Source of the DNA: a virus
IMG/VR virus record: IMGVR_UViG_3300025769_000095
Span: 4,902 to 68,901 of that record
Reading direction: 5' to 3' (one strand)
DNA: 64,000 bases
The notes below the pieces were generated by a model that had not been told where the DNA came from, did no database searches, and worked only from the letters and a program-made list of their open reading frames with translations. Below are positions 4,248 through 39,400 of this stretch, one piece after another (the stretch's first letter is position 1; every line of letters starts with the position of its first letter). The position numbers were made by a program, and so were the translations under genes.

Positions 4248-5096
4248 ATGAGTGATTTCTTAGGTGTAAATCAAGAGAGTAGAGCACCCTACACAGGCCC
4301 TGTTGTTGCACAAGTATTGGGAGTAAATCTCAATGAAGATCAACTTAAACAGTTGAATGCTTCAGAAAACTTTGCAAAAGCATTTGGTAATCCATTGGAA
4401 ACACCTCTGACTAACGAGGTAACACTTCCTGACGGCACAACTACAACAGTAGAGCTGCAAAGCCTTACTGTGTTCTTTCAGCCAAACAGAGAGGAAGTAA
4501 ATCAAATCTTTCCTGCTACATTGTATCTTGGTAATGCTGTTAGATATTCCCAAAGTGGGAATGCTCAGTATATTACTAAGCAAGGTGTAACTTCTTATCC
4601 TAAGAGGGACACAGGTAAGGTACCTGATTTTATTCTCAACATGGATCCAACTCCTCGTGAAGCTCGCATTGGTGAGGGTGAATACTATGACTTTCTTGAG
4701 AAAGCTCTTGGTTTTGATTCTGTCAAAGCAAAGGAACAAAATATTTACATTGTTCCGTGGGCAGAGCAGAATGGATTTGGCTTTACCCATGTTGTAGAAG
4801 GTAATGTTACTAAGCTGAATGAAATGCTGAATAAATTCAGCAAAGGCATGGTCATTACTATTGGTGTAAATCCTGACACATCTCAAATGAAGGTTATTCT
4901 TCGTCCTGAGTCTACTTACAAGAACTATAATGAGGTTCCAGCTGGTTTTGTAAGTAAGCTACAAAAGAAGATTACTGACCCTGACTATCCTTTGAGCAAA
5001 ACATTGGATGTCACATCTACTTTCCAGAAATATACTGGGGAGGATCAAAATACTTCTCCTCAAACAGGAGGTATTACTGATGATATAGGTTGGTAA
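4248..5096 (+). CDS. Putative crAss-type single-stranded DNA-binding protein
   Basis: YTG...VLGVN N-terminus, REARIGEGE motif, acidic-aromatic tail TDDIGW, lies just upstream of primase. Confidence 0.6.
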   Translation: MSDFLGVNQESRAPYTGPVVAQVLGVNLNEDQLKQLNASENFAKAFGNPLETPLTNEVTLPDGTTTTVELQSLTVFFQPNREEVNQIFPATLYLGNAVRYSQSGNAQYITKQGVTSYPKRDTGKVPDFILNMDPTPREARIGEGEYYDFLEKALGFDSVKAKEQNIYIVPWAEQNGFGFTHVVEGNVTKLNEMLNKFSKGMVITIGVNPDTSQMKVILRPESTYKNYNEVPAGFVSKLQKKITDPDYPLSKTLDVTSTFQKYTGEDQNTSPQTGGITDDIGW

Positions 5097-6189: not shown

Positions 6190-6920
6190 ATGCACAGGTT
6201 GTAAGAAACCCTAAAATGCCCAAGGTCATACATGATTCTTGGGCATTTTTATTTAACAAAGTAATGGATGATCCAAGATGGCGTGAAATAGAAAGAGTAG
6301 TAGGGACAAACAAACACAACATCTGCCCTGAACCTCAGAATATATTCAAAGCCTTCTCTATTCCAAGAGATAAGGTACAAGCAGTATTTCTTGGTTTGTC
6401 TCCTTATCAAAACTACAAGAGCGGAATGCTCTTTGCAACAGGTCTTGCCTTTGGTGTACCTGACAGAACTATGGACACTCCATCATTGCAAATTATTCGT
6501 GATGAATTGGAAAGAACGTATCCTACTTTCAATGTAGATGATCCAAGGATATTTGACTATACACTTGAGCATTGGCACAATCAAGGTGTAATGCTTCTTA
6601 ATTCAGCATTGACTGTTATCAAAAGAGCTGATGCAAGATGTCATTTGCATTTATGGGATTGGTTTACTCAAGAAGTTTTATGGTATATATCCTATAATAC
6701 TGCTCCAAAACCTTTTGTTTTTATGGGTAGAGACGCACAAAAGTTTAATAAGCATGTAGATGACAGTCTGCATACTATTATCAATGTGTATCATCCTGCT
6801 GCTGAAGCAAGAAACAAAGGTGGTCAGTATAGATTTACTGGAAGTGATGTATTTATTAAAGTAAATAATGTACTAATCAATCTTTATAACGAAAAAATTA
6901 ACTGGCTTTATGAAAATTGA
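6186..6920 (+). CDS. ung: Uracil-DNA glycosylase (family 1-like) with atypical catalytic loop
   Basis: PEPQNIFKAF, GLSPY (cf. GQDPY), GLAF, QGVMLLNSALTV, HPAA. Confidence 0.8.
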   Translation: MNAQVVRNPKMPKVIHDSWAFLFNKVMDDPRWREIERVVGTNKHNICPEPQNIFKAFSIPRDKVQAVFLGLSPYQNYKSGMLFATGLAFGVPDRTMDTPSLQIIRDELERTYPTFNVDDPRIFDYTLEHWHNQGVMLLNSALTVIKRADARCHLHLWDWFTQEVLWYISYNTAPKPFVFMGRDAQKFNKHVDDSLHTIINVYHPAAEARNKGGQYRFTGSDVFIKVNNVLINLYNEKINWLYEN

Positions 6921-9171
6921 AACTAATTACAATGATTCAGTATCTACTCTGAGTGGCTTTGACATGAAGGTAGATGGTGAGTCAAATGAGCTGTTGATGT
7001 ATATTCTTTCTCAAGGCTATTCTGATCCTATTGGTAGTATTGTGAGAGAGTATTCTACAAATGCCATTGATGCCCACATTGAGGCTGGTAAGATGGATGA
7101 GCCTATTGTTATTCATGTTGATGACTCTGTCTTTCAAGTACAAGACTTTGGTACTGGCATGGATAAGGAAAGGATTACCAATGTGTTTTGTAAGTTTCTT
7201 GGTTCAACCAAGAGAGATACAAATGAAATACATGGTGGCTTTGGTCTGGGTGCAAAGTCTGCTTTGGCATACAGAGATCATTTTATGATTTATACTGTGA
7301 AAGATAACTATCATCACAGGCTTGTTATGCGTAAAGGCAATAATTCTATTCGTCTTGAAACAATCTCTGAAGGCTACACAGATGAGATTAATGGTACAAA
7401 GATTACAGTACCATTACTTAGTGTCTATGATAAGTCTAAGTTTGTTCAGGCCATGAAGGATCAATTGGCTTACTTTGATAATGTTACATTTACTCCATCA
7501 ACAAGAATCTCTAATGATTTTAAACTGTATGAGGGTAAGCATTTCAAAGTATCTTCTCTTGCAGAAGAAAACAAACCTACAATCTTGCTTGGTAGTGTAA
7601 ACTATCCTTCTTCTAATAAACTGTCAAGTTGGTATGGTTGGCCAATAGCTCTTAAGTTTGACATTGGAGATTTAAAAGTTACTCCTTACAGAGAAAGTAT
7701 CATTTATGATGATACGGCCATTGAAAAGATTAAAGAGAAGTTTGAATTAGCTAAGAAGGAAATTACAGAATATGCAATAGAATTGTATAATGAAAGTATT
7801 TCTGATGCTAAGGAATATATGATTCATTTGTTTCAGTATCAAAGAAAAGGTGTACAATTATTTGATAAAACCTTTCCTGAGTTATCTGTACCAAAGAAGA
7901 GGTATTCTAAGTTCAAGTACATCAAAAGTGCACACTTTTATCAGGATTCTGTAATAGGGCCTTTAGATGCTAAACTTCAGTCTTATTACACATTAGATCA
8001 TACTAATAATGGCAGACGTTCAAGAGAGTATGTTGTTTCTAAAAGTACCAAAGGATGGACTTTAAAGGATATGCTTCACAATAATGACTTAAACTTGATA
8101 TGTACTTATCCAAATACAAAATGGTCTACTGTGACAAATAAGTATTTGACAAGAACATTCAATAAAAGCATTAGGATTTTTAATATCAAGAGAAAGCGTA
8201 GTCTGTGGAAGCATTTTTATCTTCCTTTGCAACTAAATGAATATCCTCGTTCTCAATGGAGAGGTATTATCAATGAGTATCTTGAGTTTGAACGTGATTT
8301 GTTTAATGAGATTGTGTTTTATGATGACATCATAGTTCCAGAAGAGTTTAGAAAGCAGCTTAATAGTGAGAGGAAAAAGTCAATTCAAAAGAGAAAGACT
8401 TCTCCTAATGTAAAAATTAAAGTAGGTCGTAAGGGTCAAACATACCCTTATCTTCAGGTATTTGATATATCAATGAAGCTTGATGATGTTTATAATTTTA
8501 GAGAAGTCAGAAAGCATTCTCCTAAAGGCATTATTATTCATCATGATATAAATGTTCTTAGAAACCTACATTATCTTTTTACAACGCGTATTACCAATAG
8601 TCATGTTGAGAATTCTCATTTTGCTGTAGCTCTTGTAAATAAGAAAGTTTACAAACAACTTGAAACTTCTCAATTTCTGATTAAGTACGATGATTTTATA
8701 AGTAATTACTCCAGACATTTGAGTAAATTGTGCACAGCACTTATTATAAGCAATTGGTTTGGAAATATTTATAGAAAAATTCCTAACTTTAACAATAAAT
8801 TGTTTGAAGTTAGAATTCCTTTTTATAGTGATGAAACAAGAAAATTGCTTGATAAGCTACAAGACTATGTAAGGGATAATATGAATCATCGTATTTGTGA
8901 TATTGACAGCAGATTTATATACAATGGGAGAGAGTATCATTTTTCTCATTTATTAGACAAACACAAGGATCTTATTGATATTGCTGAAAAGAACAACTGG
9001 TGGGATAAAGCAGCACTTGATGATCTTAATAAATTTAAGAATTTAGTGTTTGACTTTTTACCTGTTGGCCAGACTAATTTTTCAGATCCTAATAGCACAA
9101 ACTGTGGATTTCTAGTAGAGTATTTTAAGTTAAAGAAAATTAAGTTAAATAAATCGTTCTATAACCTTTAA
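6910..9171 (+). CDS. rIIA: rIIA-like protein (GHKL/HSP90-like ATPase N-terminus)
   Basis: REYSTNAIDAH, DFGTGM, STK...GGFGLGAKS, NGTKIT; adjacent to an rIIB-like gene. Confidence 0.85.
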   Translation: MKIETNYNDSVSTLSGFDMKVDGESNELLMYILSQGYSDPIGSIVREYSTNAIDAHIEAGKMDEPIVIHVDDSVFQVQDFGTGMDKERITNVFCKFLGSTKRDTNEIHGGFGLGAKSALAYRDHFMIYTVKDNYHHRLVMRKGNNSIRLETISEGYTDEINGTKITVPLLSVYDKSKFVQAMKDQLAYFDNVTFTPSTRISNDFKLYEGKHFKVSSLAEENKPTILLGSVNYPSSNKLSSWYGWPIALKFDIGDLKVTPYRESIIYDDTAIEKIKEKFELAKKEITEYAIELYNESISDAKEYMIHLFQYQRKGVQLFDKTFPELSVPKKRYSKFKYIKSAHFYQDSVIGPLDAKLQSYYTLDHTNNGRRSREYVVSKSTKGWTLKDMLHNNDLNLICTYPNTKWSTVTNKYLTRTFNKSIRIFNIKRKRSLWKHFYLPLQLNEYPRSQWRGIINEYLEFERDLFNEIVFYDDIIVPEEFRKQLNSERKKSIQKRKTSPNVKIKVGRKGQTYPYLQVFDISMKLDDVYNFREVRKHSPKGIIIHHDINVLRNLHYLFTTRITNSHVENSHFAVALVNKKVYKQLETSQFLIKYDDFISNYSRHLSKLCTALIISNWFGNIYRKIPNFNNKLFEVRIPFYSDETRKLLDKLQDYVRDNMNHRICDIDSRFIYNGREYHFSHLLDKHKDLIDIAEKNNWWDKAALDDLNKFKNLVFDFLPVGQTNFSDPNSTNCGFLVEYFKLKKIKLNKSFYNL

Positions 9172-9181
9172 AATCTAAAGT

Positions 9182-10453
9182 ATGTTTAATTTCATTAAAT
9201 TAGGTGACCAGTACACTGTATTTGTAGGTGACAAAATCTATGAAGGTACACCTGAAGACCAAAGTGCTTTTATTGTAGATCTTCACAATGAAAATGAAGA
9301 TTTAGTTATCAAACATCTTTCTCCTGAGAGGTATTTTGAATCTGTAAAGAACAAGATTCTTGAGTCTATTGCTCAGTTTGATGAGTTTAGCTTAGAGAAT
9401 GGTTACTTGTTTTACAAGAACATTCCTTATGCATTACCTGATTTACTTGTTGATAAGATTGTAAAAGCTTATGATGGGCATCAGTCTTTGCTTCAGTTTG
9501 TGAAAGATATTACTCCTTATACAAACTTTTGGGGTTGGTGTGCATTGAATCCTAATGTTCATAGCAGAAAGCAACTGTTTAACTTTCTTGACAGGGCTGG
9601 TATTCAAATTACCAAAGATGGCATGCTTGTGTGTTACAGGAATGTCAATGTAAAACAAGAAGGTGATCTTGAATTGACAGAGTTTGTGTCTCAGCAGTAT
9701 ACTCGAATCAAGAAATGGAATAGTTCTCCAAAAGATTACATTATCCTTAGGGATAGTAGTGGTAATTTGCAATGTACAACAGTTACTCCATCCAATAATG
9801 ATATTGTATATGGTAACTTGCAGGGATTGTATGACAACATTGACAGGTTTGAATCTGTATTTACTGACAACTACACAGGTAAGTTTAGGATTGAACTAAA
9901 TAAGCCTGTTGTTATGGACAGGGAAAAGTGTGATCCTGACCCAGATTCTGATTGTTCTCATGGTTTGCATGTAGGTGGTGCATCATTTCTTAGAAGTGGA
10001 GACTTTGGTAATAAGCCAATAGCAGTATTGGTTAATCCAATGAATGTTGTTGCTGTTCCAGCATATAATCAATGGAAGATGCGCGTATGTGAGTATATGC
10101 CATTTGCTATTGTTGAGTATGATGAGGATAACAATATTAGGCCTATTGACACAGAAGTGATTGAGTTTGACTATAGTAAGTATTCAATTGATGAATTGTA
10201 TTCTGCTATTGATTATCCTCATGACCCTGATCATGCAGATGGAATTAGTGCCATTGCTGGAGATAAGAATGTTTATCTTAACTTTGTAGATAATATGCGA
10301 GAATTAATTGATAAACGAGTGACTTATTTATTCAAGCAGCAAGTAAACTATACTACCATTCAGAATGAAGAAGACAATTATTATACTGATGAGTATGATT
10401 ATGATGAGGATGCTGATGTTAATGAAGAATGGGTCTATGATGACACAATGTAA
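9182..10453 (+). CDS. rIIB: rIIB-like protein
   Basis: ITKDGMLVCYRNV, MDREKCDPD...CSHGLHVG, VNPMNVVAVP, KMRVCEY; acidic tail. Confidence 0.85.
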   Translation: MFNFIKLGDQYTVFVGDKIYEGTPEDQSAFIVDLHNENEDLVIKHLSPERYFESVKNKILESIAQFDEFSLENGYLFYKNIPYALPDLLVDKIVKAYDGHQSLLQFVKDITPYTNFWGWCALNPNVHSRKQLFNFLDRAGIQITKDGMLVCYRNVNVKQEGDLELTEFVSQQYTRIKKWNSSPKDYIILRDSSGNLQCTTVTPSNNDIVYGNLQGLYDNIDRFESVFTDNYTGKFRIELNKPVVMDREKCDPDPDSDCSHGLHVGGASFLRSGDFGNKPIAVLVNPMNVVAVPAYNQWKMRVCEYMPFAIVEYDEDNNIRPIDTEVIEFDYSKYSIDELYSAIDYPHDPDHADGISAIAGDKNVYLNFVDNMRELIDKRVTYLFKQQVNYTTIQNEEDNYYTDEYDYDEDADVNEEWVYDDTM

Positions 10454-17650: not shown

Positions 17651-17970
17651 CAATTAAGAATCTTACTGATCATCCTATTGTAATATTAAATAGCGACAAT
17701 AAAAGGATTATGTACCTTCATCCTGAAGGCGAACCTGCAAGAGTAAAAAAGATAGTGGAACAAGTAGATTATTTAGGTGCTATTCCTTTATCTGAAGCAA
17801 GGTTTGGTAAGATTAAAAACCTCCCACCACCAAGTCCCAATGTGATATATATTGTATCTAAGATGGTCTTTGAAGCAGCAAAGGATAGGTACGATTTGTA
17901 CTACCCTGCTGAGAAGGTAAGAGATAATAAAGGAAGGGTCCTAGGCTGTAAAAGCTTAGGACTCTCCTAA
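17647..17970 (+). CDS. Conserved hypothetical phage protein
   Basis: NLTDHPI...NLPPP...YIVS...RD..GRVLGC; last gene of the + strand block. Confidence 0.65.
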   Translation: MTIKNLTDHPIVILNSDNKRIMYLHPEGEPARVKKIVEQVDYLGAIPLSEARFGKIKNLPPPSPNVIYIVSKMVFEAAKDRYDLYYPAEKVRDNKGRVLGCKSLGLS

Positions 17971-17983
17971 CAAAAAAATTTCC

Positions 17984-18133
17984 TTAACCTTTCTTTTTCT
18001 TAGTCTTAGCTTTAATCTTACGTTCTTGCTTAAGCATTTCTTGAGTTGGTGCTTTACCACTACCTCTTTTTGCACGGATATTATTCCATAAACTATTTTC
18101 TACTCCAAGTTTATTAAGCTTCTTCTTTGGCAT
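17984..18133 (-). CDS. Small, highly basic protein (49 aa), not in the ORF track
   Basis: Manual translation MPKKKLNKLGVENSLWNNIRAKRGSGKAPTQEMLKQERKIKAKTKKKKG*; overlaps the end of 18114-18314 and fills the gap. Confidence 0.65.
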   Translation of the reverse strand: MPKKKLNKLGVENSLWNNIRAKRGSGKAPTQEMLKQERKIKAKTKKKKG

Positions 18134-18314
18134 GATCATTTGCTTTATTGAGGGATTCTAATGTTCTTAAAACTTCACCAGTAATAATATTGTTTGCTTC
18201 ATCTAACACCAAATGGATAGGATAAGTTTTAGCAATGTTTAGCACTTCTTCCATTGTTTCACACATGAAACTTACTTTTTCAGAGGCTGGGTTAACATAA
18301 ATTACATCATACAT
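18114..18314 (-). CDS. Hypothetical protein
   Basis: 66-aa ORF in the - strand run. Confidence 0.5.
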   Translation of the reverse strand: MYDVIYVNPASEKVSFMCETMEEVLNIAKTYPIHLVLDEANNIITGEVLRTLESLNKANDHAKEEA

Positions 18315-18341
18315 GATTAAGGTTTTTGATTAAAAAATTTC

Positions 18342-18485
18342 TTATAGTTTATCTATCTTCCAAAGATAAACTTGAATTGTAAAAAAAGGTATTTCAATAC
18401 AAAAGTATGCACGTTTAGGTATTACTGCTTTACCCCATGATATTCCTATGCAAATTTGATTAGAGGTATATGTTACAACTTTCAT
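18342..18485 (-). CDS. Small hydrophobic hypothetical protein (47 aa), not in the ORF track
   Basis: Manual translation MKVVTYTSNQICIGISWGKAVIPKRAYFCIEIPFFTIQVYLWKIDKL*; fills the gap downstream of the tRNA. Confidence 0.45.
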   Translation of the reverse strand: MKVVTYTSNQICIGISWGKAVIPKRAYFCIEIPFFTIQVYLWKIDKL

Positions 18486-18549
18486 ATTTTAATATTTGTA
18501 CTCGGAGCGGGGCTTGAACCCGCACGGCCATTACTGGCCACAGGATTTT

Positions 18550-19216
18550 CTTACCACTATAGTTTTCACTACCATTAAGCGCATAATGTTTGTGGTCTGG
18601 ACTTTCTCTTCATCATATCATTTCTGACTTAGATGCCTTCCGTCAAGTCTCTACACGTTCTCCTCTTTTGGAGCTTCGCTCGGGATTGCCATTTTACAGG
18701 TTTCCCCGAATTTGAAAGGTTCTACTCCTGAAATTTCTTTCAAGGCACTCTTTGGTTTGTATGAATCTTTTTTCAAATTCATTTTAGTTTTTAATGGAAT
18801 GCCTCCGTTTTGTACAAAAGCTCCATATTGACCAGTGCATTTTTTAGAACAAAAGCCAGAAGACTTTCTTCTGTTTCTCTGTCCTAATTTATTGCCTTTA
18901 ATAACAAACTCACTATTACACCAAACACAAATATGTTTTTCATCTTTATATTTTAATGCGTCTTGATAAGAATGAGTTTTTCGGTCAATAACTCTTAAAT
19001 TTGAAAGTTCGTTATTTGTAAAATCACCATCAATATGATCAATGGTTTCATTATCGCTCAAATAACGATTTAAATACATCTCTACTAAATACTTAGGGTA
19101 AGAAATGGTTTGTTTCCTGCCATCAGGATGTTTTAAAACCATTCTTTTCCTACCATCTTGTTTAGATGTATAAGGCCCATACGTTTTGCAATTATTATAC
19201 ATAATAATTACTCTTA
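18550..19216 (-). mobile_element. Group I intron (IC3, trnL/Azoarcus-like) carrying a homing endonuclease
   Basis: P AAATTCGGGGAAA (18701-13), Q AATCCCGAGC (18678-87), R GTGTAGAGACTTGAC (18642-56), S AAGAGAAAGTCC (18599-610); P3 CCUUUC/GGAAGG, P4 UUCGGG/CCCGAG, P7 G(A)GACU/AGUCC; terminal G at 18550; U.G pair at the 5' splice site. Confidence 0.93.
18651..19202 (-). CDS. Intron-encoded HNH homing endonuclease with C-terminal zinc finger
   Basis: ETIDHIDGDFTNNELSNL HNH motif; CVWC...FCSKKC; lies wholly inside the intron. Confidence 0.88.
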   Translation of the reverse strand: MYNNCKTYGPYTSKQDGRKRMVLKHPDGRKQTISYPKYLVEMYLNRYLSDNETIDHIDGDFTNNELSNLRVIDRKTHSYQDALKYKDEKHICVWCNSEFVIKGNKLGQRNRRKSSGFCSKKCTGQYGAFVQNGGIPLKTKMNLKKDSYKPKSALKEISGVEPFKFGETCKMAIPSEAPKEENV

Positions 19217-19250
19217 AAGTCCTGCGTGTCTACCAATTCCACCATCCGAG

Positions 19251-19694
19251 CTATTGTTGAGGTATAAAAACAACATTCACATCTGCTTCATCAAACATTT
19301 CTAATGCTGCAGCAAAGCTTTCAGTGTATCTTTCAGGAACTTTGTTAAACTCCCAAGTACATACTTTCTTAATTCCACATTGGATTATAGCTCTTGCACA
19401 ATCAGCACAAGTCATAAGAGTGGTATATATTGTCCCTCCTATTGGTGAAGCATTTGTTCTATGAGCATTGTAAATAGCATTGCGTTCTGCATGCTCAGTA
19501 TACAAGTACTTTTGTGGTCTTTCATACCTCCAAGTTTTGTCATCATCTACTTCTGATGGAAATCCATTGTATCCAATAGAAACAATACGATTTGTAGAGT
19601 CAACAATTACTGCACCTACTTGAGTATGTGGGTCTTTTGACCAAGTTTTAATATGCTCAGCAAGATGTAAAAAGCGAAGATCCCAATCAGCCAT
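19251..19694 (-). CDS. dCMP deaminase
   Basis: SKDPHTQVGA, GYNG, HAERNAI, TCADC; start set to MADWD (TAATG overlap with the upstream gene). Confidence 0.9.
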   Translation of the reverse strand: MADWDLRFLHLAEHIKTWSKDPHTQVGAVIVDSTNRIVSIGYNGFPSEVDDDKTWRYERPQKYLYTEHAERNAIYNAHRTNASPIGGTIYTTLMTCADCARAIIQCGIKKVCTWEFNKVPERYTESFAAALEMFDEADVNVVFIPQQ

Positions 19695-20740
19695 TATGGT
19701 GTTTCTTGTAAAGTTAAAGCTTTCCAATGTTTTATACTAATGAATGGAGCAATAATTTTTTCATTGGGATGCAAAACCATACAGGGGTATACAGGGCTTG
19801 TAAGAATAGAAAACCAAGTAGCAGCATATTCGTCATGGGTTTTTAATGTAGCACTATTCAAATATACTTTGAGCTTACCACTTTCCCAATCAAATGCACC
19901 TCCTGGTCTATGTGTATGAGCACCTAAATAAATATCTCCCTCAGGATATTGCATTGCGCTGTACTTTTTATTTGCATGGTTTACATTCCACATTGAATGA
20001 CCTGGGAATTTATGTGCAGCTGCTATCTTATACAAGACATCACCTACTTGCAAATTAACATGACAAATACCTGTACTGTAAGGCACTACTTTGGTAATAA
20101 TATTTCTTGGTACATCAACTCCAGAGAATTGTTTAATTCGAGCATCATGATTACCCTGAACTGCAAACAACACTTTATGCTTAATGTCATTTAGCCATGA
20201 CTTCATAAACTGTATTTGCAATTCAGGGGTCAATACGGAGGTCAATACTTCTGCTATAGACCTCAATTTTATGGCGAGATCAATCTCGTCTCCCATTAGA
20301 ATGATATATAGATTCGGAGTTTTTATTATTTCGTCAGTAATCTTTTGAAACAATTCATAATCAGTACCAATAGCACCAATGTGTACGTCTCCAAAAGGAA
20401 TAATACAGATTGGATTCTTTGTACTAACTGATACATCTATAAAGTGAGATGATGCATTATTCCTCCCTCTGAGTTTTTTCATTTGCTCAATAGCAGGAAT
20501 CATATCTCTCCATGAAATGTCATCAATAGATACTGTGTCTTCAAGTACTGTTGGACTTTCAATAAGTAACCTTACACCATTAACTCCTTGTGGAAGGTTA
20601 TTCTTTTTGAGAAGTCTTTTAATTCTACTACCAGCTGCAATGCTGCTGATATCAAGTAGAGTTCCTATTTTTTCAAAATAGCTTTCTGAGGTATCCTCTT
20701 CTGAAGGATTGTTAGTTTTTAGTAGTTGTAGTAGTTCCAT
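19694..20740 (-). CDS. Calcineurin-like metallophosphoesterase
   Basis: GDVH, GDEID, GNHD, AH and AHTH metal-binding motifs. Confidence 0.85.
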   Translation of the reverse strand: MELLQLLKTNNPSEEDTSESYFEKIGTLLDISSIAAGSRIKRLLKKNNLPQGVNGVRLLIESPTVLEDTVSIDDISWRDMIPAIEQMKKLRGRNNASSHFIDVSVSTKNPICIIPFGDVHIGAIGTDYELFQKITDEIIKTPNLYIILMGDEIDLAIKLRSIAEVLTSVLTPELQIQFMKSWLNDIKHKVLFAVQGNHDARIKQFSGVDVPRNIITKVVPYSTGICHVNLQVGDVLYKIAAAHKFPGHSMWNVNHANKKYSAMQYPEGDIYLGAHTHRPGGAFDWESGKLKVYLNSATLKTHDEYAATWFSILTSPVYPCMVLHPNEKIIAPFISIKHWKALTLQETP

Positions 20741-30000: not shown

Positions 30001-30488
30001 AATAAAGATGCAATTATTTCTTCTCTATCAGTAATATCTTTATCTAATATGATTTGTTTTTGCTCTTTAGATATTTGAAGTTCTGTAAGTATTTTATTTA
30101 AACCCCAATTATTATTTTTACCTTTTTCAAATATTTGTTTAGCTTTATCAGAAACTAATGTGTTAACTGCTTTTAATCTATATTGAACTTGATTATTATA
30201 TTCTTTTTGATTAAATACATTATCACCTTGTTCCCATACAGGATTATTAGAAATCTCTAATTTAATCTCAGGATATTTTTCTTTAAGATACTCAATAAGT
30301 TCTTGTTCAGTCCTACCTTTATTTCTTGAAGTAGGTTGTAAATTGATTGGAACTTCTTTAGATTTAGTATAATTATCCACTTTAGATTGACTATCTAAAC
30401 CTGCCATCCAATACCTAAAAGCTTGGGTAGTTCCATAAGTAGCTTCTAAAGCTTTCCAATCTGGGTGGTTTTTATTTGGACACATCAT
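27015..30488 (-). CDS. Large polyvalent-type virion protein with zincin (MPTase-like) domain
   Basis: PGGANYTE...GH...RILELQSD domain, HEYAHH zincin motif, THEKGGVD motif; start set to ATG 30488 (ATGA overlap). Confidence 0.6.
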   Translation of the reverse strand: MMCPNKNHPDWKALEATYGTTQAFRYWMAGLDSQSKVDNYTKSKEVPINLQPTSRNKGRTEQELIEYLKEKYPEIKLEISNNPVWEQGDNVFNQKEYNNQVQYRLKAVNTLVSDKAKQIFEKGKNNNWGLNKILTELQISKEQKQIILDKDITDREEIIASLLADNSFVVEINTAKSKINLQQLPSEEDEYKIGNDVYKRIVTPEFEYVHYKNGNKISEEEFNNVVLEKESQYYSYLTVPGGANYTENEIVTPAIKPAIKGHAQFATDNGIGWFRSDEQRVGGKTATEMGADDFIEGPNGRKINPDNVTIGGKDTKTRRILELQSDLFQKGRNRKDLITNPEVNALNTSGMRGVTNMEEMLSAYEYSLIEYENKTKEEADELVSKERKRLLGLSSSKEGFNENKFLQLLNKKGNWVNFFIQSIIQDSAKKGYEKVLFPKGDTISKIEGHTTLEEFKKQKEDRIKEIEKQLEKPKYVVDWLDTSGYGDENIIFETEQEAKDYVKIENAKLPEDVEGSYILLFNRERLNNEINQLKQEIKRVEEEGFGALRPIYDFYENRVTNTLNKLYDVKEITDEYGNKWNEITITPEVLSEIMLQRNEANQIIGQANIKAMTVLVDAVNKKADTIPHEYAHHYISWFRDTPIVQEGIKRFGSEEALVQAIGEQVVKQKGEAYNWWKKFTNWILNLLSDRQLLQILTDSFLNRQDLNEFTYNNINLNKENTQPEVEDPTKYKKIYKGSELTKPTNPNNEMSLEGFKEGQKGVYEVFEENKELLESEGITAEMLIKSISKNKNSISDIENWINNCLKGRSTNKANINTSSLPKAEQGMKSSKFTKGGKWRLIKDLQGYPTHEKGGVDLMIGKDGVSITSGQSNFKAEYGLVLPKAQQGMVIGDPPSNYQNQQDWQLDYINSPQYKQILTNEFTESGMDPNLVDKEIARRAGRVSNVSIEEDPSIGVSASSLINEANPNEVYADTNKPVNDYFSLNPADFLPQGINETLGLSPTPSSNLSVNPDLIGSNQSDVIRELAKASTAGNKGLVSSTREKLMNATDVADLNAKAELPVKKDLELNKTYSAFDNPTRIHSQLTTLKKLMQDEGIYNPMIESATPEHIQQMLQNPNIINDPNIRELIQLNLKQGTDIGQLLNSVASNNNQNLDDYV

Positions 30489-33400
30489 AATCCGCAAAGC
30501 TTTTGATGGAATGAAATTACATCTTCATTCCCTGATGAAAGGAATAATTCTTTTTGTAAATCAGGATCCATATTTTCACCATACTCAAATTCTGAAGTGT
30601 GTAAAAACTTTACTACACCTTGATATGGGTCTAATAATACTGCATAAGGTCTTCCTTCAAATTCAAAATCCATAATGTTTTCTTTTGCTTCAATTGGCGA
30701 TGTTATAGCCCAACGATTATACTCTAAGGCAAATTTGTTTATTTTTAATTCAGAAGGTTCATTTTCATTTTGGTCTAATAATTTTAACATAGAAGGATTC
30801 TGATCTGATTTAAGTAAAGTTATGTATTCTTCATTAATAGTAACTCCAAATATTGGTGAATAATCTTTAAGTGTTGCAAAACCAGTATTCTTTGGAGCTT
30901 TTTCAGCTTGATCTATAATAGTTTGTTTTTGTTTTTTACTAGAATCATCAAGTCCTTCATAAACTTTTTTACCTGTTGCAGTAGAATATATTGTATTGTT
31001 ATCAGTTACAATATACTTTGTACCATTGTACATAGTAGTTTTGTATCCGCCTATAACTTGTAACTTACTAGTACTTGGTGTACCACTAAACTTACTTCCA
31101 TCTATACCTATTAACTGAGCTTTACCTGAATTATTTATATTCCAAAGTAAATAAGTTTTACCATTATATTTTACAACAGCTCCTGGCCTAATACTTCTAT
31201 CATTAGGATCAAACATTTTAGATTGAGTAGTAGGTTGTTGCACCTGTTGTGTTGGTTGGGTAGTTTTAGACCACCTTGAATAACCATTCATTTTTTCTTC
31301 TATATATCCTTTTGTAGATAAATAATCTGCAACTAGTTTATCTGATAAATTACCTTTAGCATATTGATTACCTACTCTAAATGATGCACCTGCTTCAATA
31401 GCTTGTTCTAATAATGGTTTGTATTTTTCTTTTAAAGTTTTAAGAATTTGCGCTTCTGTTACACCTCTAAATGTTCCACTACCAGAAACCATAACTACAT
31501 CAGAAGATGTATAATTTCCAGTATTAGCTTTATCTCCCCAAGCTAATCTATATTTATTAGTAGAACTTACAGTAGCTGAGCCTGATTGAAACCCAATAAA
31601 TTGAGTAGATTCAGAAGCCATTTGAATATCTTTAGCAGCATTACCATACATGTCTGTAGGTTTTACACCTGCTTGACTTAATGGATTTACTGCTTGTTGT
31701 GACCCACCTGTTTCAATTGCAGGTGAAGTAGAAGGTGTAGGAATAGGCAAGTTTCTAAGAATAGAATTGGTATTATTTAAAAATTTCTCAAAAATTTCAA
31801 ATTCTTTTTGTGCTTTAGTTTCATCACCTAACGCTATTTCTAAAGACTCTAAATGAGAAGCTTTAGCTTTGTCAGTAAGGTTATAATCTAAAGCTTCCAA
31901 AGCAGTACCTTCTCCATCTAATACCCATCCTAAATACTCACTAGCCCAATTTTTAGCTTGCTTAAGACTTGTAAACTCAGGCATTCTATTGTTTTTAGCA
32001 AGGACATTAATATCATTTAAAGTTAATGAGTCAATACCACTATCAAATGAGCTTTTTACATCTTTATAAGTTATCTTTAATTTTATTGTAGGAGCTGCTT
32101 TGGCTTTTGCAGTTTTTTCTAAAGGTCTAAATTGTCTTAACCCTCCTGTGTAAGGAGTTGCAGTATCGTACTGATGAGGTTGTTTACTTCCATCAAAAGT
32201 AACAATATCTCCATGTTCATTAGTTACTGAATCTAAAAGTTTATGTTTTATAAAATACTCACCCTTAGAAAAGTCATTTGTACGATCTCCTTTTAAAGTT
32301 AAACTTTTTACTCTTGTATCATTTGCATTATAAACATTTAATACAACAGGCATAATATAACCTGTTCTATTATATTTTCTTCCATGAGAATTAAAAGCTG
32401 TTATTCTAATTATTGAAAGTTGTTTTTGATGCTTAGCTCTATCATATTGTTCATAACGCCCATCACTTATCTTATCTCCTCTCATTGTTTTAATATCATA
32501 CACTCTTTCTTCACCAGCTTCATCTACAGTTACTAAGTCTAAAGTAGTACCTATTCCATTATAAAGATCAATGAAAGTACTTTCTAAAGCAATAGGTGTT
32601 TCACCTTTAGATTCAAGGTACTTTGAAAATTGATCTAATTGTCTTATTAAACCATTTAATGCCCCTTCATTACCTTTTTCTACAATTTCATAAGTGCTTA
32701 AATCCTTTGATAATACCCCACTAAAATAGTCTCTTAAAAATCTATCTACTTTAGTACCTATTGTAGTAGCTGTTTCACTAAGTTGACTTTTGTTAGCATT
32801 GACATACATTCCTAATCCATCATGCTCATAGTAGCTAACTCCTTTAGAATATAAATATCTTATCAAATCTTTTTCATAAGGAGTTCCTTCTTTTGTAAGA
32901 CCAGCTATTGTTTTAAATACAAATGTAACTGACTTCTGCCATCCTCCTGCACCCATTGCTTTGTCAATCAATGCCTTTATTTCTGCTAACTCTTCTTGTG
33001 AATTAACACTTAGCATGATTGTTTCATCGCCATTAAAGTTTTTAGTAACCCCACCAAAAGCAGCAGCTAAAGGATTATTAGAAGCACTAACAATACCATT
33101 TGAATAATTAGCCATCCTTTGTTCTAACTCAGAAGCATTAGTAAGTTGAACAGGAGAAGTTAGTTTTTCAAATTTAGGCTTACTTATAAAGTGAGTATTA
33201 CGCATTACCGTATTAGATCCATCAACATAAGAGGTTTTGTCTTTACTAATTTTAACATTCTTAGTAGCTTCAGGAAGTTCTTTAGTATAAAAATCAAGAG
33301 CTTGCTCTTTTGGACTTTTTACAGTTTGACCATTTGGATTTACCTTACCATTTAAAGTAGAGCTTATAAAAACTCTATCTGAAAATCTTGTAATAGCTGT

Positions 33401-36400
33401 GTACATTGATTTAGATAAATTATCTGGATCATCCTTTGTTACACTATAAATATCATCTTCTAATACAAGACCTTCTGCATAAGTAGAACCTTGAGATTGG
33501 TGAGAATTAATAGCATATGCATAATCAAATCTTACATAGGCATCACTTATATCTCTAAAAACACCTCCTAATTGTCTGTGTGCAGAAGGATTACTAAACT
33601 TTAATTTATTTCTTTCTTGCTTTAAAGCTTTACGGAATTGCATTATAATATTATAATCCTCAGGGAAAGGAACCCTTTGTGTAGTAGATTCACCATATAT
33701 TTTTAAAGGAAGTTGATGGCTTCTTATTTTTACTTTACTCCATTGCTCATAGAAAGTTTTAGGTAACAAACCAGCTACTTCTAATCTATCAATAACATTT
33801 TTGAAAAAGTAATCTTCTCTTTCTTCAGGCCTCCCTACAATTTGAGCAGCTGTATTTTTAGTAATAGCTATTGCTTGACCATCTACCATTAATCTAAATG
33901 GATCTAAAACTCTAAGTAGTTCACCCTTATAATAAGGTTTTGGATTATCTCCAAATATAGTTTGTCTAACCCTTGCATTTGTTTTATTTACTGTAGCATT
34001 TCTATATCCAATAATTCTAAACAAATTAGGATTATTCTCTTTAATAGCTTTTTTATACCTTTCTATAGCATAATTAAATAAGTTATTTTTTTCTTCTTCT
34101 TTTATAAATACTAATTCTTCAGTATCAATACGTTGGAGACTACTGTAAGGATTTTTAGGTTTATTTTTTTTATCAGAATGAGAACTATCCCAAGCATGAT
34201 CTGCCCAAGGAAGAATAGAACTGTCTTCTCCTTGTCTTACTCTTTCAAACAATTTGACTGATGAACTATCATTATCTTTTAATTCTAAGAAAGGTCTTGA
34301 CAAATAACTTCCTAATTTATGTTTTTTAACAAAATCATTAAGTTTAGCTTCAGCTATTGTTTTAGCTTGACCTCTAGAAGTATCAACTTCAGTATTAATA
34401 TTTTCTAATTCAGAAATAATAAAAGGATCTAATTTTAAATATTTAGCTAACAACAAATAATCTTTACCTTCTCTTACAGGAATTAATTGTCCACTATCAC
34501 CAGCAAATAAAATCTTAGCAGTAGGATTTTGTTCCCTAATTTTAGCATATGTACTTTCACTTATCATAGAAGCTTCATCTATAATAATGTAAGTAGCTTC
34601 TTCTATTGCAGTTGTTTTTTTACCTCTTTTAAAATTATTAGAAGTTGGATCATATTCTTCACCTAAACCAGAACTAATAGTAGAAACTTTAATAGTTTCT
34701 TCTTTTTCTACTCCTGCGTTCTTAAGATTATTAGCCGCTTGATTAGTAGGAGCTAATACTAAAATAGGTTTTTGCATATAGCTAGCCGAGGCAGCTAATT
34801 TCTGAGTTATAAACTTAATAATTGTAGTCTTACCTGTACCTGCTTTACCTTGTAATAAAAAGTCAACACCTTTATTATTACCCATAAAAAAGTCAAGAAT
34901 TCTATTATGAGCATTCTTTTGACGATCATTTAAATTTTCATAACTAACTGCTGATATGTCTTTACGACCTTCTTGTTCAACAGGTTGTTGCTGTTCAGTA
35001 GAAGGTTGTTCAGTAGGGGTTGGCTTTTGATCTGTTTCTTCTTCTTTAGAAATTAACTGAGGAGGAATATTACTAGATGAAGGAATTGAAGAATCACCAT
35101 CTTCAAATTCTGAGTCAAAGAAATCTTCTCCAAAAGATTCACCACTACCAGTAGTACCCATTGGAGGAGCATCACTTGCAGATGGGGGTGGAATGAATTC
35201 TTGTCTTGTGAAAGTTTTTAAAGTGGGTTTACTGCTATACACATCTTCAGCATGTTCTCCAAAGAAATATCTTTGTACTCTCTTTGTGTTATCTTCATAA
35301 GTACTCAGTTCACTAACACTTACCCATTTTTTAATGTTATAATAATACTTAAACAACATATTACCATATCCAGGAACATATGTTTTAAGATAAGGAAACC
35401 TAATCCCTCTTTGTCTTTTATGTTCATTTATATATAGTACTGAAGGATTATTAGGATCTGCGTAAGGACTATAAATTGGTTCTGGAATATAATCCAAATC
35501 TCTAAAGTTATTTCTTATAAACTGGTCTAAGAAATTATTTACATGGCTATCACCTTTATCAAAATATTCTAACTGAGATTTTAATGTTTCAAAATCTTTC
35601 TTGTTAGCCCATGTTTTTAAAGGTAATAATTGATTAAACCCTCCCATAGTAAATCTAAATCCACTTGCATAGAAAGAATAAACTTTTAAAAATTCAAGTA
35701 CATCTGATGGTAATTTCTTAACATCATTTTTTATATCTTGAACTTCATTCCTATCCATATTAATATTACCTTGATAGATAATATATCCAGCTTTAGTAAA
35801 TTCAAGTTTCTTTAAAAATTTATTGTTAGGGTTTGACTTTTGAAGAGCCATTAGTTTTTTTCTATTCTCCGCGTAAGACTTTTTAAACATGTCATAATCA
35901 TACAACACAGAACCTAAGTACTCAAAATACTGCCTGTAAAGAGAATCTATTTGATCATTAGTAAGGTCCCACTTTTCATAAATGTTTTTCTTTAGTCTTT
36001 CAGCCTTATTTAGAATTTTTTTAAAGGTCTCACCTTTTATATTTGGAAACCCAATTTGATTTACAATAGTATCTAGTGGTAAAGAAATACCATACTCTAC
36101 AAGAGTCTCCATGTAGAAAGGTATTTCTAAAGAAGATTCAAACATCTCTTTAGCTCCTACAAAATAAGCATCAAAAGATGCTTTTTGATACCTTCTTTCA
36201 GAACCAGCACTTTCACTTAGATTAGCTCCTAATCCACCATCTCCAATTTTAGTATTAGTAATAAGATCTGAAATATTACTTACTAAATCTTTCATACCAA
36301 AAAGAGTACCAATAATACTTTCACTACTATTTAATACATTACCATCAGCATCAAAATATAAAATTGAACTACCTGCTTTTGGTAAAACATTAGCTAGTTT

Positions 36401-39400
36401 ACTTTTACTAAGCAAAGCATCTTCAGTATATTGTAATACTAAAGGATCATTAAGAACTGATATTGCTTGAGGAATACTATAACCAAGAGACAACAACCCA
36501 AACAAATAATCACTTGTAGCAGAGTTAACATTAATATATCCAGCTAATGGATTCTTTCCATTATCCACAGCAGCAGCTAAAAACTCTGCCATGTTTTGAA
36601 TTTTAGAAACACCTGTATTGTCAAATTCTTTTGACAAGTTTGTTAATTCTTCAATTTCAATATTAGTAGTTCCATTTTTAAAAGTTAAATTATTAATCAT
36701 TGAGTTAAAAATAGAATCTATTTCTTCTTGAGTAAAGCTAATAGATTGTTTTTCTTCTAATCTACTTTTTTCTTTTTTTGCAAATGCTGCTTCTGAAATA
36801 GCTAGTTTTATTAAATTTTGTATTACAGCATAAGCATTTGCATTAGAAGATGTATTAATTAAATCTTTTGCAAGATTAGGGTAATTGTAAGATTGTTTAT
36901 TGTCAATATTTTCAGAAAAAGATTTATAGAATTTTAAAACCTCTTCTATTATTTTAGTATGATTAGATGGGTTACCTAATAATTCTCTAAATACTTCTTG
37001 TACAGCACCATTTGCTTCAAATTTAGCATCAAAGTTTTTAATTGAATTTAATAATTTTTCATTAAAGAAATTATCATTTTTTATATTATTTGTTATTTCA
37101 ACAGGTAACTTAACTATTCTAGTTAAAAATCCATCTTTATGTTGAATATTATAATGTTGCCACAACGCATTTGATGCTAAAGCATTAGCTGCAATACCAG
37201 TCAATGCTTTACCTTGATTCATTCGTTGAGCAATATTAACAGTGGTAACAGGGTCTAACATTAGCAATTTAACATCACCCTCCTTGTATTTATTTGCTAA
37301 TCTTTCAACAGTAGCAAAACCTCCAGGCTTAAGTTGTTTAGATGCAACACTAGAATCTCCTAAAATATCATTCCACATTAAATTAAATAATGTCTTTTCA
37401 TTAGCTCTTTTAGTTTGAATCCTTTCTGTTTGTTGTACAACTTCAAAATCTGTTAATAATAAATCATCTCTTTCAGCAACTAAATCTTTTATGTTTTGAT
37501 AAAGAGTGTCTTTATAATTATAAAGGTCACCTAATCTTTTTTTAAGTTCTTTATATTCTTCTGAGTTAAGACTTTCAAGAAGTTGTTTTTCAGCTTCTTT
37601 AGGATCACTAGACAATGATAAATCTGAAATCTTTGAGCTTAAAGTAGCTAACTCTAACTTTAATTCAGGTATTGATTCTTTAGTATTTACTAAATTCTCA
37701 TATAACTTCTCTATTCTTTTATTATAATCTTCTACTATTTTTCTACCTGCATTAGTTCTTTTTGCTATTTGTAAAGCTGTCTGTACTTTAGAAGGTGCGC
37801 CAAAACCTTTTACCTTATCAATGTCAAAGTCAAGACCTGCAATAGCAGTAATCTCATGAGGCAATGTCATTGTATCTGAAAATGGATCAAATGCAATAGC
37901 TTTGATTTTAAAATCAGAATAGAAATATTCATTAGGAATACGATACCCTATTGATTCTTTTAAAGACTCAGGCATTGTATTAAATGCTTCTTGATCAATA
38001 AAGCCTTCATCATTAATGTATTCTGCTATTTCCTTATTTGTTACAGGAAGAATAGCTTCCATATAAGCTATTGACTTAGGTACTGATTTAGTATCATTAG
38101 CTTTTATAATCTTACCATCAGCATCTTTAAATACAATGCGAGGTTTCTTTGCAAAACCTACAGCTGAACGGTTAATTAAAGAATACCCATTAGAAAACTT
38201 TTGATCACTAACTCCTTTTCTATACATACTTGATAGTAAAGACTCAATGGTTTTACTATTTACAGGATGCCATAAAGGAACTGTTGGATCTCCATTTTCA
38301 TCAAGTTGAAGCATTTCTAAAAAGTCATCTCCTAACCCTCTGTTAATTACATCTTCTCTTAATTTTTTAATAAGATCATTCCAATTAGAAATTTCATCTG
38401 TAAGCTCTGCATATGAAATCTTAATATTATCTATAATAAGTTGTTGGTAAGCTTTTACAATTTTATCGTAGTTAGGATGATTATTTTTTAAATCAACAAT
38501 AATAAGCTTTTGAATCTGTGTTCCAAATAATTCACTTGATTCATAATAGTGGCTTGGATTTTCTTGTTGCTTACCCCAAGCATCATAACTAAGTGAAACT
38601 ATAGGAGCACCTTCACCAAGATAAGAATCAATGCTTTCTTCAACATTGTATTCATCACTAAGATTTAAGTTTGGCTTGTATGCTTTTAAAGTAGAATCAA
38701 AAGTATATACGCCATTGTCAACTTCAGTATCTACATTTGAATAATCAACCGTACCATCAGGGTTAAACACATAACCTGATTCTTCTAATAATCTTTTATA
38801 GAAAGGATTGTACAAAGGGTTATCTACTTCACCTTTTTCAGTTTTTATTTTTTTCAATCCATAAAATGGAATCATTAATATTTCAGAATCTTTCTTTTGG
38901 AAAGGTGTAAGCTTAGAAGTGTTAGGGTCATTTAAAACCTTTTGAAGTACCATTGTATAAACATATGGTTTGATAGTTTCAAAAGATCTTATACTCTTAA
39001 GCTCTTCTATTATTGGAGAGTTTTCAGGTAGTGCTTTAACAATAGCATCTATATGTTTTTTAGAAGGTAATTTACCTGAACTAATAAGTTTCCAAACAAG
39101 ATCTTTAGCTTCTGTCCATTCTCCCATAGCTATCATTCGATACTTATAACTATGAGGAGTAAGAAGAGTCATACCATCAGTTAAAGAAACGCCCTGTTCA
39201 TAAGCTGATAAGTTTTCATCTCCTAATATTTTACCTAACTGATTTAACTGAGGAGCAGGTGTTTCAATATCAGGAAGAATCCTGATGTTCATTGTACTAG
39301 GTACTTTAGTAACTTCTCCTTTTGAATTAGACCAAAATGCATCAGAAGAAGCATATGTTACAGGGGAGTATAACTCTTTAACTCTCTTAAAGAAATCATC

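Follow-up and report, generated by a model that had tools for sequence, protein, structure and literature searches.

Can the group I intron of trnL(UAA), which textbooks describe as old, free of open reading frames (ORFs) and mostly vertically inherited, also exist as a mobile, endonuclease-bearing element of phages? This question is raised by a locus in the IMG/VR virus record IMGVR_UViG_3300025769_000095, of which a stretch of 64,000 nucleotides (nt; positions 4,902 to 68,901 of the record) was analyzed. This stretch is referred to below as the window, and all positions are given in its numbering. The record is 68.9 kb long with an estimated completeness of 68%, and its sole tRNA gene, a tRNA-Leu(UAA) found by ARAGORN with introns allowed, is interrupted by a group I intron that carries the gene of a putative HNH homing endonuclease. 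We consider it likely that the locus is a composite mobile element in the phage's only tRNA gene, made of an IC3-type ribozyme and an HNH homing endonuclease.

The interrupted tRNA-Leu(UAA) gene

The positions of the gene, the intron and the intron ORF are collected in Table 1. The exons joined in silico give a class II tRNA-Leu(UAA) with a normal cloverleaf (ARAGORN) and the junction CUU^AAAAUCC, and the intron is inserted between U34 and A35 (ARAGORN i(36,667)). The 3' exon ends without an encoded CCA. TTA accounts for 829 of the 1697 Leu codons in 37 ORFs and is the commonest Leu codon of the phage, which the spliced tRNA would read as UUA. At default settings ARAGORN called no tRNA in the whole 64-kb window; default tRNA finders miss genes split by introns, so that phage tRNA inventories are undercounted.

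The Rfam covariance model RF00028 matches 18762-18580 on the minus strand over the full model (positions 1-253) with 58.3 bits against a gathering score of 50 (E 3.2e-12), and it is the only Rfam family above threshold within the window. A nhmmer profile of 68 bacterial trnL(UAA) introns matches exactly 18750-18550 (E 4.1e-45), and a profile of 8 cyanobacterial trnL introns alone also gives a match (E 5.2e-11). The 68 introns are a sample and not a census, taken from a motif scan that listed at least 120 rows; they come from Pseudomonadota, Acidobacteriota, Cyanobacteriota, Bacteroidota and others, are 194-411 nt long and are all ORF-less (68/68). By its sequence, the intron core is a homologue of the bacterial and cyanobacterial trnL(UAA) introns, a family that we take to be the archetype of subgroup IC3; the subgroup name reportedly appears in the title of a study by Ikawa et al. 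from 2000.

A preliminary description of this DNA had proposed a tRNA-Leu(UAA) at 18499..19251, broken in its anticodon (U^AA) by a group I intron akin to the cyanobacterial and plastid trnL (IC3) introns and containing an HNH endonuclease ORF. The coordinates are exact on the minus strand by sequence and ARAGORN, and the broken gene and the group I assignment are confirmed by the spliced fold and the covariance model. The kinship is supported by the nhmmer profiles and, weakly, by the intron tree (support 88), and the ORF is intact and recognizable by Pfam, PHROG, homology to a gene of phage PVP-SE1 and invariant residues, as described below. To this the present analysis adds that the ORF lies in the P1 loop and overlaps P1'-P6, and that the element is one of many phage introns.

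Table 1. Positions of the interrupted tRNA gene, the intron ORF and the elements of the ribozyme in the window
Feature	Position	Strand	Basis and details
Interrupted tRNA-Leu(UAA) gene, pre-tRNA 753 nt	18499..19251	(-)	ARAGORN, introns allowed: tRNA-Leu(taa) i(36,667)
5' exon, 35 nt	19217..19251	(-)	Acceptor strand, D arm, 5' anticodon stem, C32 U33 U34
3' exon, 51 nt	18499..18549	(-)	A35 A36, 3' anticodon stem, long variable arm, T arm, acceptor strand, discriminator A
Group I intron, 667 nt, trnL(UAA)/IC3 family	18550..19216	(-)	Rfam and nhmmer; end ...GGUAAG
HNH homing-endonuclease ORF, 183 aa (by profile)	18651..19202	(-)	Pfam HNH_3, phrog_14913
HNH_3 motif region, residues 50-78	18969..19055	(-)	PF13392; includes D55-H56 and N68
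Predicted 10-bp A/U-rich hairpin enclosing the AUG (19202-19200)	19188..19211	(-)	Minimum free energy and centroid folds (prediction)
P1, 5' strand	19216..19219	(-)	Consensus mapping; C19219, U19218, U19217 (last exon base), U19216 (first intron base)
Internal guide sequence AGAG	18748..18751	(-)	Alignment; P1 3' strand, directly 5' of P2
P1 loop L1, 464 nt	18752..19215	(-)	One large insertion relative to ORF-less introns; holds most of the HNH gene
P2 hairpin	18727..18744	(-)	GAAA tetraloop 18737-18734
P3 (18719-18714 with 18641-18636)	within 18636..18719	(-)	Consensus mapping, covariation; encloses P4, P5, P6 and J6/7
P4	18709-18704/18685-18680	(-)	Consensus mapping
P5	18700-18699/18690-18689	(-)	Consensus mapping
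P6	18679-18670/18662-18655	(-)	Consensus mapping
P7, 5' strand	18646..18651	(-)	G18651, bulged A18650, G-A-C-U 18649-18646; pairs with 18603-18599
P7, 3' strand AGUCC	18599..18603	(-)	
P8 hairpin	18611..18635	(-)	
P9 domain	18553..18596	(-)	Closing helix 18596-18592/18557-53 and two inner hairpins
Terminal guanosine (omega G), 3' splice site	18550	(-)	Sequence

Structure of the ribozyme

To derive the structure, 29 distinct ORF-less pre-tRNAs from viral contigs were aligned and a consensus was computed with RNAalifold, with P7 added by hand. The RNAalifold consensus comprises P1, P2, P3, P4, P5, P6, P8, a three-helix P9 domain and the tRNA stems. Among these relatives 99.2% of the cells are standard-paired and 46 of the 73 pairs, P7 included, show compensatory changes, compared with 31-39% pairing in a control where the partners were slid by 1-3 columns. 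Two of the P7 pairs carry compensatory changes in the relative L195. The window sequence keeps 64 of 68 consensus pairs as standard pairs, and the four exceptions lie at alignment-ambiguous tips.

In P1, the end of the 5' exon and the first intron base are paired with the guide sequence through C19219-G18748, U19218-A18749, the splice-site wobble U19217.G18750 and U19216-A18751. The splice-site U.G pair is invariant in 29/29 relatives, the guide AGAG aligns with a GAG that is invariant among them, and the U19216-A18751 pair stands where the ORF-less introns have A-U. The loop closed by P1 measures 464 nt in the window intron versus ~8-11 nt in the ORF-less relatives. A more proximal AAGAGU at 19214-19209 was rejected as guide sequence, as its loop would be at most 3 nt and the distal AGAG matches the guide of every relative. 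From the guide sequence to omega G, the 202 nt of the window intron are colinear with the ~200-nt ORF-less introns, and the end ...GUGGUAAG is common to both. The second inner hairpin of the P9 domain has a GAAA loop at 18567-18564. The core is compact, with no P5abc or P7.1/P7.2 extensions and just 12 model positions from P6 to P3' in the Rfam alignment; a compact core lacking P5abc and the P7.1/P7.2 extensions characterizes subgroup IC3. The pre-tRNA folds with -214 kcal/mol compared with a mean of -156 for 20 shuffled sequences (z -10.3), and in the RNAfold model the L1 insert folds on itself. The RNA encoded in the window is a group I intron with all core helices, the splice-site G.U, omega G and every tRNA stem intact.

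This integrity bears on the explanation that the insertion can no longer splice and has turned the tRNA gene into a pseudogene. The combination of a large P1 loop with a short P1 could be read in this way, as could the RNA contigs described below, where no spliced product was seen. However, the core helices, splice-site G.U, omega G and tRNA stems are all intact, 29 further phage contigs of the same architecture yield a tRNA-Leu(UAA) called by ARAGORN when spliced in silico, and the gene is the only tRNA of the phage and reads its most used Leu codon. We regard a pseudogene as very improbable.

The HNH open reading frame in the P1 loop

The ORF starts 14 nt past the 5' splice site and continues uninterrupted for 183 codons in sequence of 29.5% GC. 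Pfam HNH_3 (PF13392) matches marginally, with 25.6 bits against a cut-off of 24.8, and phrog_14913, "HNH endonuclease", matches residues 2-126 with an E value of 8e-24. In an alignment of the window ORF with four homologues, residues D55, H56, N68, C92, C95, C118 and C122 are invariant. Judged by profile and intact motifs the product is an HNH endonuclease, which presumably cleaves DNA. The conserved protein consists of residues ~1-137, and homology to other proteins stops near 137. Residues ~151-183 are encoded by the ribozyme elements P1', P2, P3, P4, P5 and P6, and the stop codon UAG (18653-18651) falls in the invariant J6/7 sequence GUGUAGAGAC. In 18 other intron-borne loci of the same lineage that were examined, the ORF usually extends into P1'/P2 as well, and the overlap alone is thus no sign of decay.

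These features also allow the explanation that the intron splices while its HNH gene has become inactive or is decaying and is carried along as a passenger, with the element inherited vertically in the phage lineage after homing was lost. The C-terminal tail, which continues into the ribozyme core as far as a conserved UAG that terminates it by chance, fits such decay, and so do the distance to the nearest HNH relative (just 60% identity, among the best 80 of 185) and a 110-nt ORF-less expansion of the P1 loop in the related intron L125, which resembles a decayed insert. In contrast, 183 unbroken codons at this GC content and the invariance of the D-H...N residues and of four Cys speak against decay, and the overlap, being the usual state of the 18 further intron-borne members examined, does not in itself point to it. 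A passenger gene is therefore considered unlikely, although it is the most serious of the alternatives.

The HNH lineage and tRNA-Leu(UAA)

An alignment-based scan of viral contigs gave 185 HNH relatives, of which the best 80 were classified by in-silico splicing and adjacency. Near-duplicates inflate the class counts, the 81 proteins (window ORF included) amounting to 71 distinct sequences. In 29 of the best 80 the HNH gene lies inside a trnL(UAA) intron (class A), with the ORF 8-39 nt past the 5' splice site and introns of 626-720 nt; the products of these 29 contigs spliced in silico are the tRNA-Leu(UAA) calls mentioned above. The gene is free-standing and directly 5' of an intron-less tRNA-Leu(UAA) in 30 (class B; gap -37 to +17 nt) and directly 3' of one in 7 (class C). 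It adjoins another tRNA in 5 (class D), has tRNAs near but none adjacent in 3 (class E), and has no tRNA within 1.2 kb in the remaining 6 (class F). The lineage is thus tied directly to tRNA-Leu(UAA) at 66 of the best 80 loci, either intron-borne (29) or free-standing (37), which strengthens the earlier proposal that intron-less trnL is the target of the enzyme. The endonuclease-armed trnL(UAA) intron is a recurrent architecture in uncultured phages and not a curiosity. At many loci the ARAGORN labels tRNA-Tyr(ata), Ser(aga), Phe(gaa) and Ser(tga) reflect misplaced intron boundaries of tRNA-Leu(UAA), and when wide limits were set on intron length, halves of neighbouring tRNAs were joined, as in PVP-SE1 (L372); for these reasons loci were re-classified by in-silico splicing.

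One class E locus, L410, has a free-standing HNH gene 6 nt upstream of a tRNA-Leu(UAA) with an ORF-less intron of ~190 nt. In a quick tree of the HNH proteins the intron-borne and free-standing forms interleave, with 8-9 changes of state, at least two of which are forced by well-supported branches. The nearest relative of the window protein among the best 80 of 185 is the intron-borne L340, at 60% identity. The closest cultured homologues, 43-44% identical, are found in the Salmonella phages PVP-SE1 (44%) and SSE-121 and in Klebsiella phage KP13-16, where the genes are free-standing in tRNA clusters and lie directly 5' of an intron-less tRNA-Leu(UAA). In PVP-SE1 (NC_016071 65914-66408; L324:2480-2974) the gene is an intact ORF of 164 codons that is not annotated in RefSeq and that shares 38 nt with the 5' part of tRNA-Leu(UAA); SSE-121 has an identical arrangement, which is annotated there. 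Among more distant homologues, that of RaK2 is flanked by other tRNAs and those of PA11 and Kuravirus are located away from tRNA genes, and the T5 F-Tfl type is named only in the annotation note of PA11. As a separate observation, in the viral contig L388 (1650-1990) a gene of this HNH lineage precedes a tRNA-Leu(UAA) with a group I intron at a different site, between the D arm and the anticodon stem, with the anticodon loop CAGACTTAAAATCTG intact downstream of the intron.

The free-standing forms raise the alternative that the HNH enzyme serves mainly in competition between phages or in gene conversion of the locus (marker exclusion, tRNA-locus amplification), with the intron as a safe harbour. 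Such a role is suggested by the 37 of the best 80 loci that stand free beside an intron-less trnL(UAA), and, in the available text of one report, SegB, an endonuclease of the phage T6 tRNA locus, is described as driving segmental amplification (PMC13096335). This role is, however, compatible with homing, given that a cut in an intron-less trnL repaired from the intron allele co-converts the intron. As the main function of the enzyme we consider it improbable.

Relatives of the intron and exons

A tree of 117 introns (209 columns, quick search, SH-aLRT support, that is, Shimodaira-Hasegawa-like approximate likelihood ratio test, only) pairs the window intron with the phage intron L077 (SH-aLRT 95) and places it in a weak group (SH-aLRT 88) that also contains the cyanobacterial clade, three introns of Bacteroidota and two of phages. 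The mature tRNA shares 92% identity with that of a gene with a 248-nt intron in a Bacteroidetes metagenome-assembled genome (MAG; L231), whose context is chromosomal because the neighbours are lumazine synthase, pyruvate dehydrogenase E1 and similar housekeeping genes. The 202-nt core is 88% identical (177/202) to an intron of a Bacteroidia MAG. The exons and the ribozyme core are thus closest to Bacteroidota chromosomal genes and look host-derived.

Many IMG/VR phage contigs contain an ORF-less intron of ~200 nt at the same U34/A35 site. A pattern scan of viral contigs for the 5' exon gave at least 120 loci, 12 of them with a sequence other than AAAA after GGACTT, and a trnL intron was confirmed by ARAGORN or Rfam in at least 6 of these 12. 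A protein-based scan with the ORF matched mostly the translated ribozyme core (residues ~144-183) and thereby uncovered dozens more introns; the loci L004-L203 include 41 distinct ORF-less trnL-type pre-tRNAs with introns below 230 nt. In GenBank, the megaphages LR756501 (735 kb; L002:1960-2250) and LR756503 have an unannotated tRNA-Leu(UAA) with a 205-nt intron. At the gathering threshold Rfam found none in L001 (Kolpuevirus) or L002 (LR756501), although ARAGORN calls the trnL intron in L002. Other phage versions bear an ORF, located in L1 (L036, L061, L130) or in the P6 region (L008, L077), and these ORFs encode another type of HNH protein, whose motif is close to the C terminus.

Several further loci were noted in the course of these scans. 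The unannotated megaphage LR756511 (595 kb) has at 409214-409949 a tRNA-Leu(UAA) with a longer insert of ~700 nt. In L148, L162 and L174 a phage tRNA-Arg(UCU) has an intron of ~201 nt after position 34 with the same ...GUGGUAAG end and a trnL-related core, and the phage intron family is thus not confined to tRNA-Leu. Phage tRNAs with a UAA anticodon and a short variable arm, many of them intron-bearing, occur in L126, L154, L161, L167 and others and at L124:1408-1973; they have a class I shape and ~72-76 nt when mature, as opposed to the long arm expected of bacterial tRNA-Leu. In L077, an 81-kb viral contig, the intron-containing tRNA-Leu(UAA) is preceded, at a distance of a few hundred bases, by a partial match to GOLLD RNA (429-913; 81 bits, short of the gathering score of 150), and in L057, a viral contig of 174 kb, a transfer-messenger RNA match (1750-2287; 66 bits, gathering score 47) adjoins an intron-containing tRNA-Leu.

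The phage, its host and an intron-less allele

The best cultured matches of a virion protein of the phage are in Flavobacterium phages (Fipvunavirus) and Cellulophaga phages, with ~26% amino-acid identity, and because of this closeness the host is probably a member of the Bacteroidota. The preliminary description had called the phage crAss-like; this label could not be confirmed, since the nearest cultured phages share only the ~26% identity just given and the NCBI taxonomy line of FpV4 shows no placement in Crassvirales. Capsid and terminase genes were not identified in the window, and a megablast search of 8000-32000 against a phage collection returned no match, indicating that there is no close cultured relative. 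Other genes of the window include a RIIA-like (phrog_612, E 2e-56) and a RIIB-like gene (phrog_609, E 8e-28) at 6910-10453 (+) and a single ORF of 6057 codons at 30485-48658 (-), among large virion-protein genes, whose first 4500 residues (35159-48658) have no PHROG match at E 1e-5.

The preliminary description had also suggested a survey of related phages for intron-less alleles, and one was found in the viral contig L330. Its exonuclease is 75% identical to that of the window, and an intron-less tRNA-Leu(UAA) is present in the same neighbourhood. The two tRNAs are identical at 67 of 86 positions; the variable arm is conserved save for one change, and the density of differences is highest in the anticodon stem-loop and in the D arm. 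The comparison fits intron gain with co-conversion and intron loss alike. The dCMP deaminase, the exonuclease, a short conserved segment (window 18342-18485, L330:4529-4656) and the tRNA follow one another in a rearranged order around the tRNA gene in the two phages. The ORF within the intron and the intron-less allele in a relative are observed, and it is from these that we infer that the intron is mobile.

Metagenome and RNA data

Fourteen DNA runs from freshwater metagenomes contain at least 81% of the words of 17900-19900, seven of them being possibly source runs of the record. In the DNA run X14, which is not flagged as a source, contigs cover 17900-18702 and 18686-19246 with zero differences, and the first of them bridges the 3' splice junction. 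The same evidence bears on the explanation that the locus is an assembly chimera in which a host tRNA intron was joined to phage DNA. Conserved tRNA and intron sequences can attract misassembly, and depth spikes occur at the conserved core in metagenome contigs; with 14 runs, the X14 contigs without differences and the same architecture in 29 other viral contigs, however, a chimera is exceedingly improbable.

Contigs from RNA libraries (three metatranscriptome runs from three studies, in which DNA carry-over is possible) are identical to the ORF region at 18744-18894, 18755-18905, 18966-19178 and 18962-19192. Joints at 18526/19224 and similar positions were rejected as spliced product, as 25-30 other letters lie between, including an intact ...GATTTTAAGTC... 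anticodon loop; they come from intron-less tRNA-Leu genes of other organisms.

Comparison with known systems

The window intron shares with the trnL(UAA) IC3 introns of cyanobacteria, plastids and other bacteria the U34^A35 site, the GAG guide, P2-P9 and the ...GUGGUAAG 3' end. It differs from the 68 sampled ORF-less bacterial introns in its 183-codon HNH ORF within a 464-nt P1 loop and in its location in a phage genome. The intron of the cyanobacterial tRNA-fMet is similar in being a bacterial-type intron in a tRNA anticodon loop with its own endonuclease aimed at the tRNA gene, and differs in the tRNA (fMet versus Leu) and in its chromosomal, non-phage location; its nuclease belongs to a different family and is not known to be of the HNH type. 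The free-standing HNH proteins of tRNA clusters (PVP-SE1, SSE-121 gp002, KP13-16 ORF 49) are of the same lineage and have the same tRNA-Leu(UAA) neighbour, but they stand beside an intron-less tRNA gene whereas the window ORF is inside a tRNA intron.

Introns in phage protein genes (T4 td and nrdB, the SPO1 type, and crAss-like DnaB, MCP and PolB, with HNH or GIY-YIG enzymes) likewise combine a self-splicing intron with a homing endonuclease in a phage, although the host gene is protein-coding and not a tRNA as here. In Kolpuevirus 'frurule' (OQ198718; L001:2470-3550) a GIY endonuclease gene separates the two annotated parts of the replicative helicase DnaB, and the gap contains a group I core ~78% identical to the window intron over ~100 nt, below the Rfam gathering score. 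In its sections on phage introns, a 2014 review states that those observed to that date were all in protein-coding genes, despite the many phage tRNA genes (PMC3984707). The same sections present collaborative homing, in which the conserved site targeted by a free-standing endonuclease is also the one occupied by an intron that lacks an ORF (PMC3984707). The HNH lineage resembles such collaborative-homing and gene-invasion models, as it is seen free-standing at intron-less trnL, beside an ORF-less intron and embedded in the intron, and the L410 arrangement is what that text calls collaborative homing (PMC3984707). The cases it presents are in phage protein-coding genes, whereas the present one is in a tRNA anticodon loop and is known from sequence alone. 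A preprint on Lak megaphages (Devoto et al., 10.1101/356790, 2018) mentions, in its available text, 'enigmatic' introns in tRNA-Thr, Phe, Gly and Tyr and knows of no earlier report of phage tRNA introns. These are similar as phage tRNA introns and are described in that text without a group I assignment or an endonuclease. A full-text literature search, with subscription-only literature outside its scope, found no phage tRNA-Leu group I intron and no endonuclease-bearing trnL(UAA) intron.

Proposed mechanism

Following transcription of the pre-tRNA, the L1 insert would fold on itself and the P2-P9 core would fold, while the tRNA body and the anticodon stem would hold the exons together, for which a study of Anabaena is said, by its title, to provide a precedent. 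P1 would then arise by pairing of the distal AGAG at 18751-18748 with CUU at the exon end and the first U of the intron, and the intron would excise itself in two guanosine-initiated transesterifications to give a tRNA-Leu(UAA) that reads UUA. Either the same transcript or the excised intron could serve as mRNA for the HNH enzyme. Because of the lineage-wide association with tRNA-Leu(UAA), the most likely substrate of the enzyme is intron-less tRNA-Leu(UAA) DNA, which it would nick or cut in the vicinity of the anticodon arm. With the intron-bearing copy as template for repair, the intron and the ORF would spread during co-infection, and the presence of the intron would protect the carrier's own tRNA gene. 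The HNH gene, which most likely comes from a phage pool of tRNA-Leu-associated endonucleases, would have been inserted into the P1 loop of the ribozyme. With a host-like ribozyme and host-like exons on one side and an HNH gene from the phage pool on the other, the element looks like a merger of two elements.

Several observations weigh against this composite mobile element. P1, of just 4 bp, would have to close a loop of 464 nt, and in the model of RNAfold, which cannot handle pseudoknots, the exon end is paired instead with the 3' strand of P7. The protein has a tail of ~45 residues without homologues, 33 of which are encoded by the ribozyme core; the tail may mean that the native stop was lost, and ribosomes passing through P1'-P6 would be in competition with the folding of the ribozyme. 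No ligated-exon junction was found in the RNA contigs (X15, X16, X18), whose cover is partial, or in the X14 DNA contigs. Among the best 80 of 185 relatives there is no HNH copy above 60% identity and no near-identical second copy, and thus no sign of very recent spread. The L330 allele differs in the anticodon stem-loop and may therefore not be a substrate, and the intron and HNH trees are both quick searches on short alignments.

If the element works as proposed, it provides a testable target for an uncharacterised HNH family, including the unannotated gene of the cultured phage PVP-SE1, and a natural series for studying how endonuclease genes and introns merge. It also offers a plausible way for the trnL intron to spread horizontally between phages and hosts such as Bacteroidota. 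A broader view, which we put forward tentatively and hold to be possible rather than probable, is that the HNH lineage and the trnL intron may together display all the steps by which a mobile intron arises at one target, with several switches of state, and that armed phage copies would act as a horizontal vehicle between phages and bacterial phyla, Bacteroidota and perhaps cyanobacteria. If this is true, the armed phage copies would be the long-missing carrier of the 'ancient, vertically inherited' trnL(UAA) intron.

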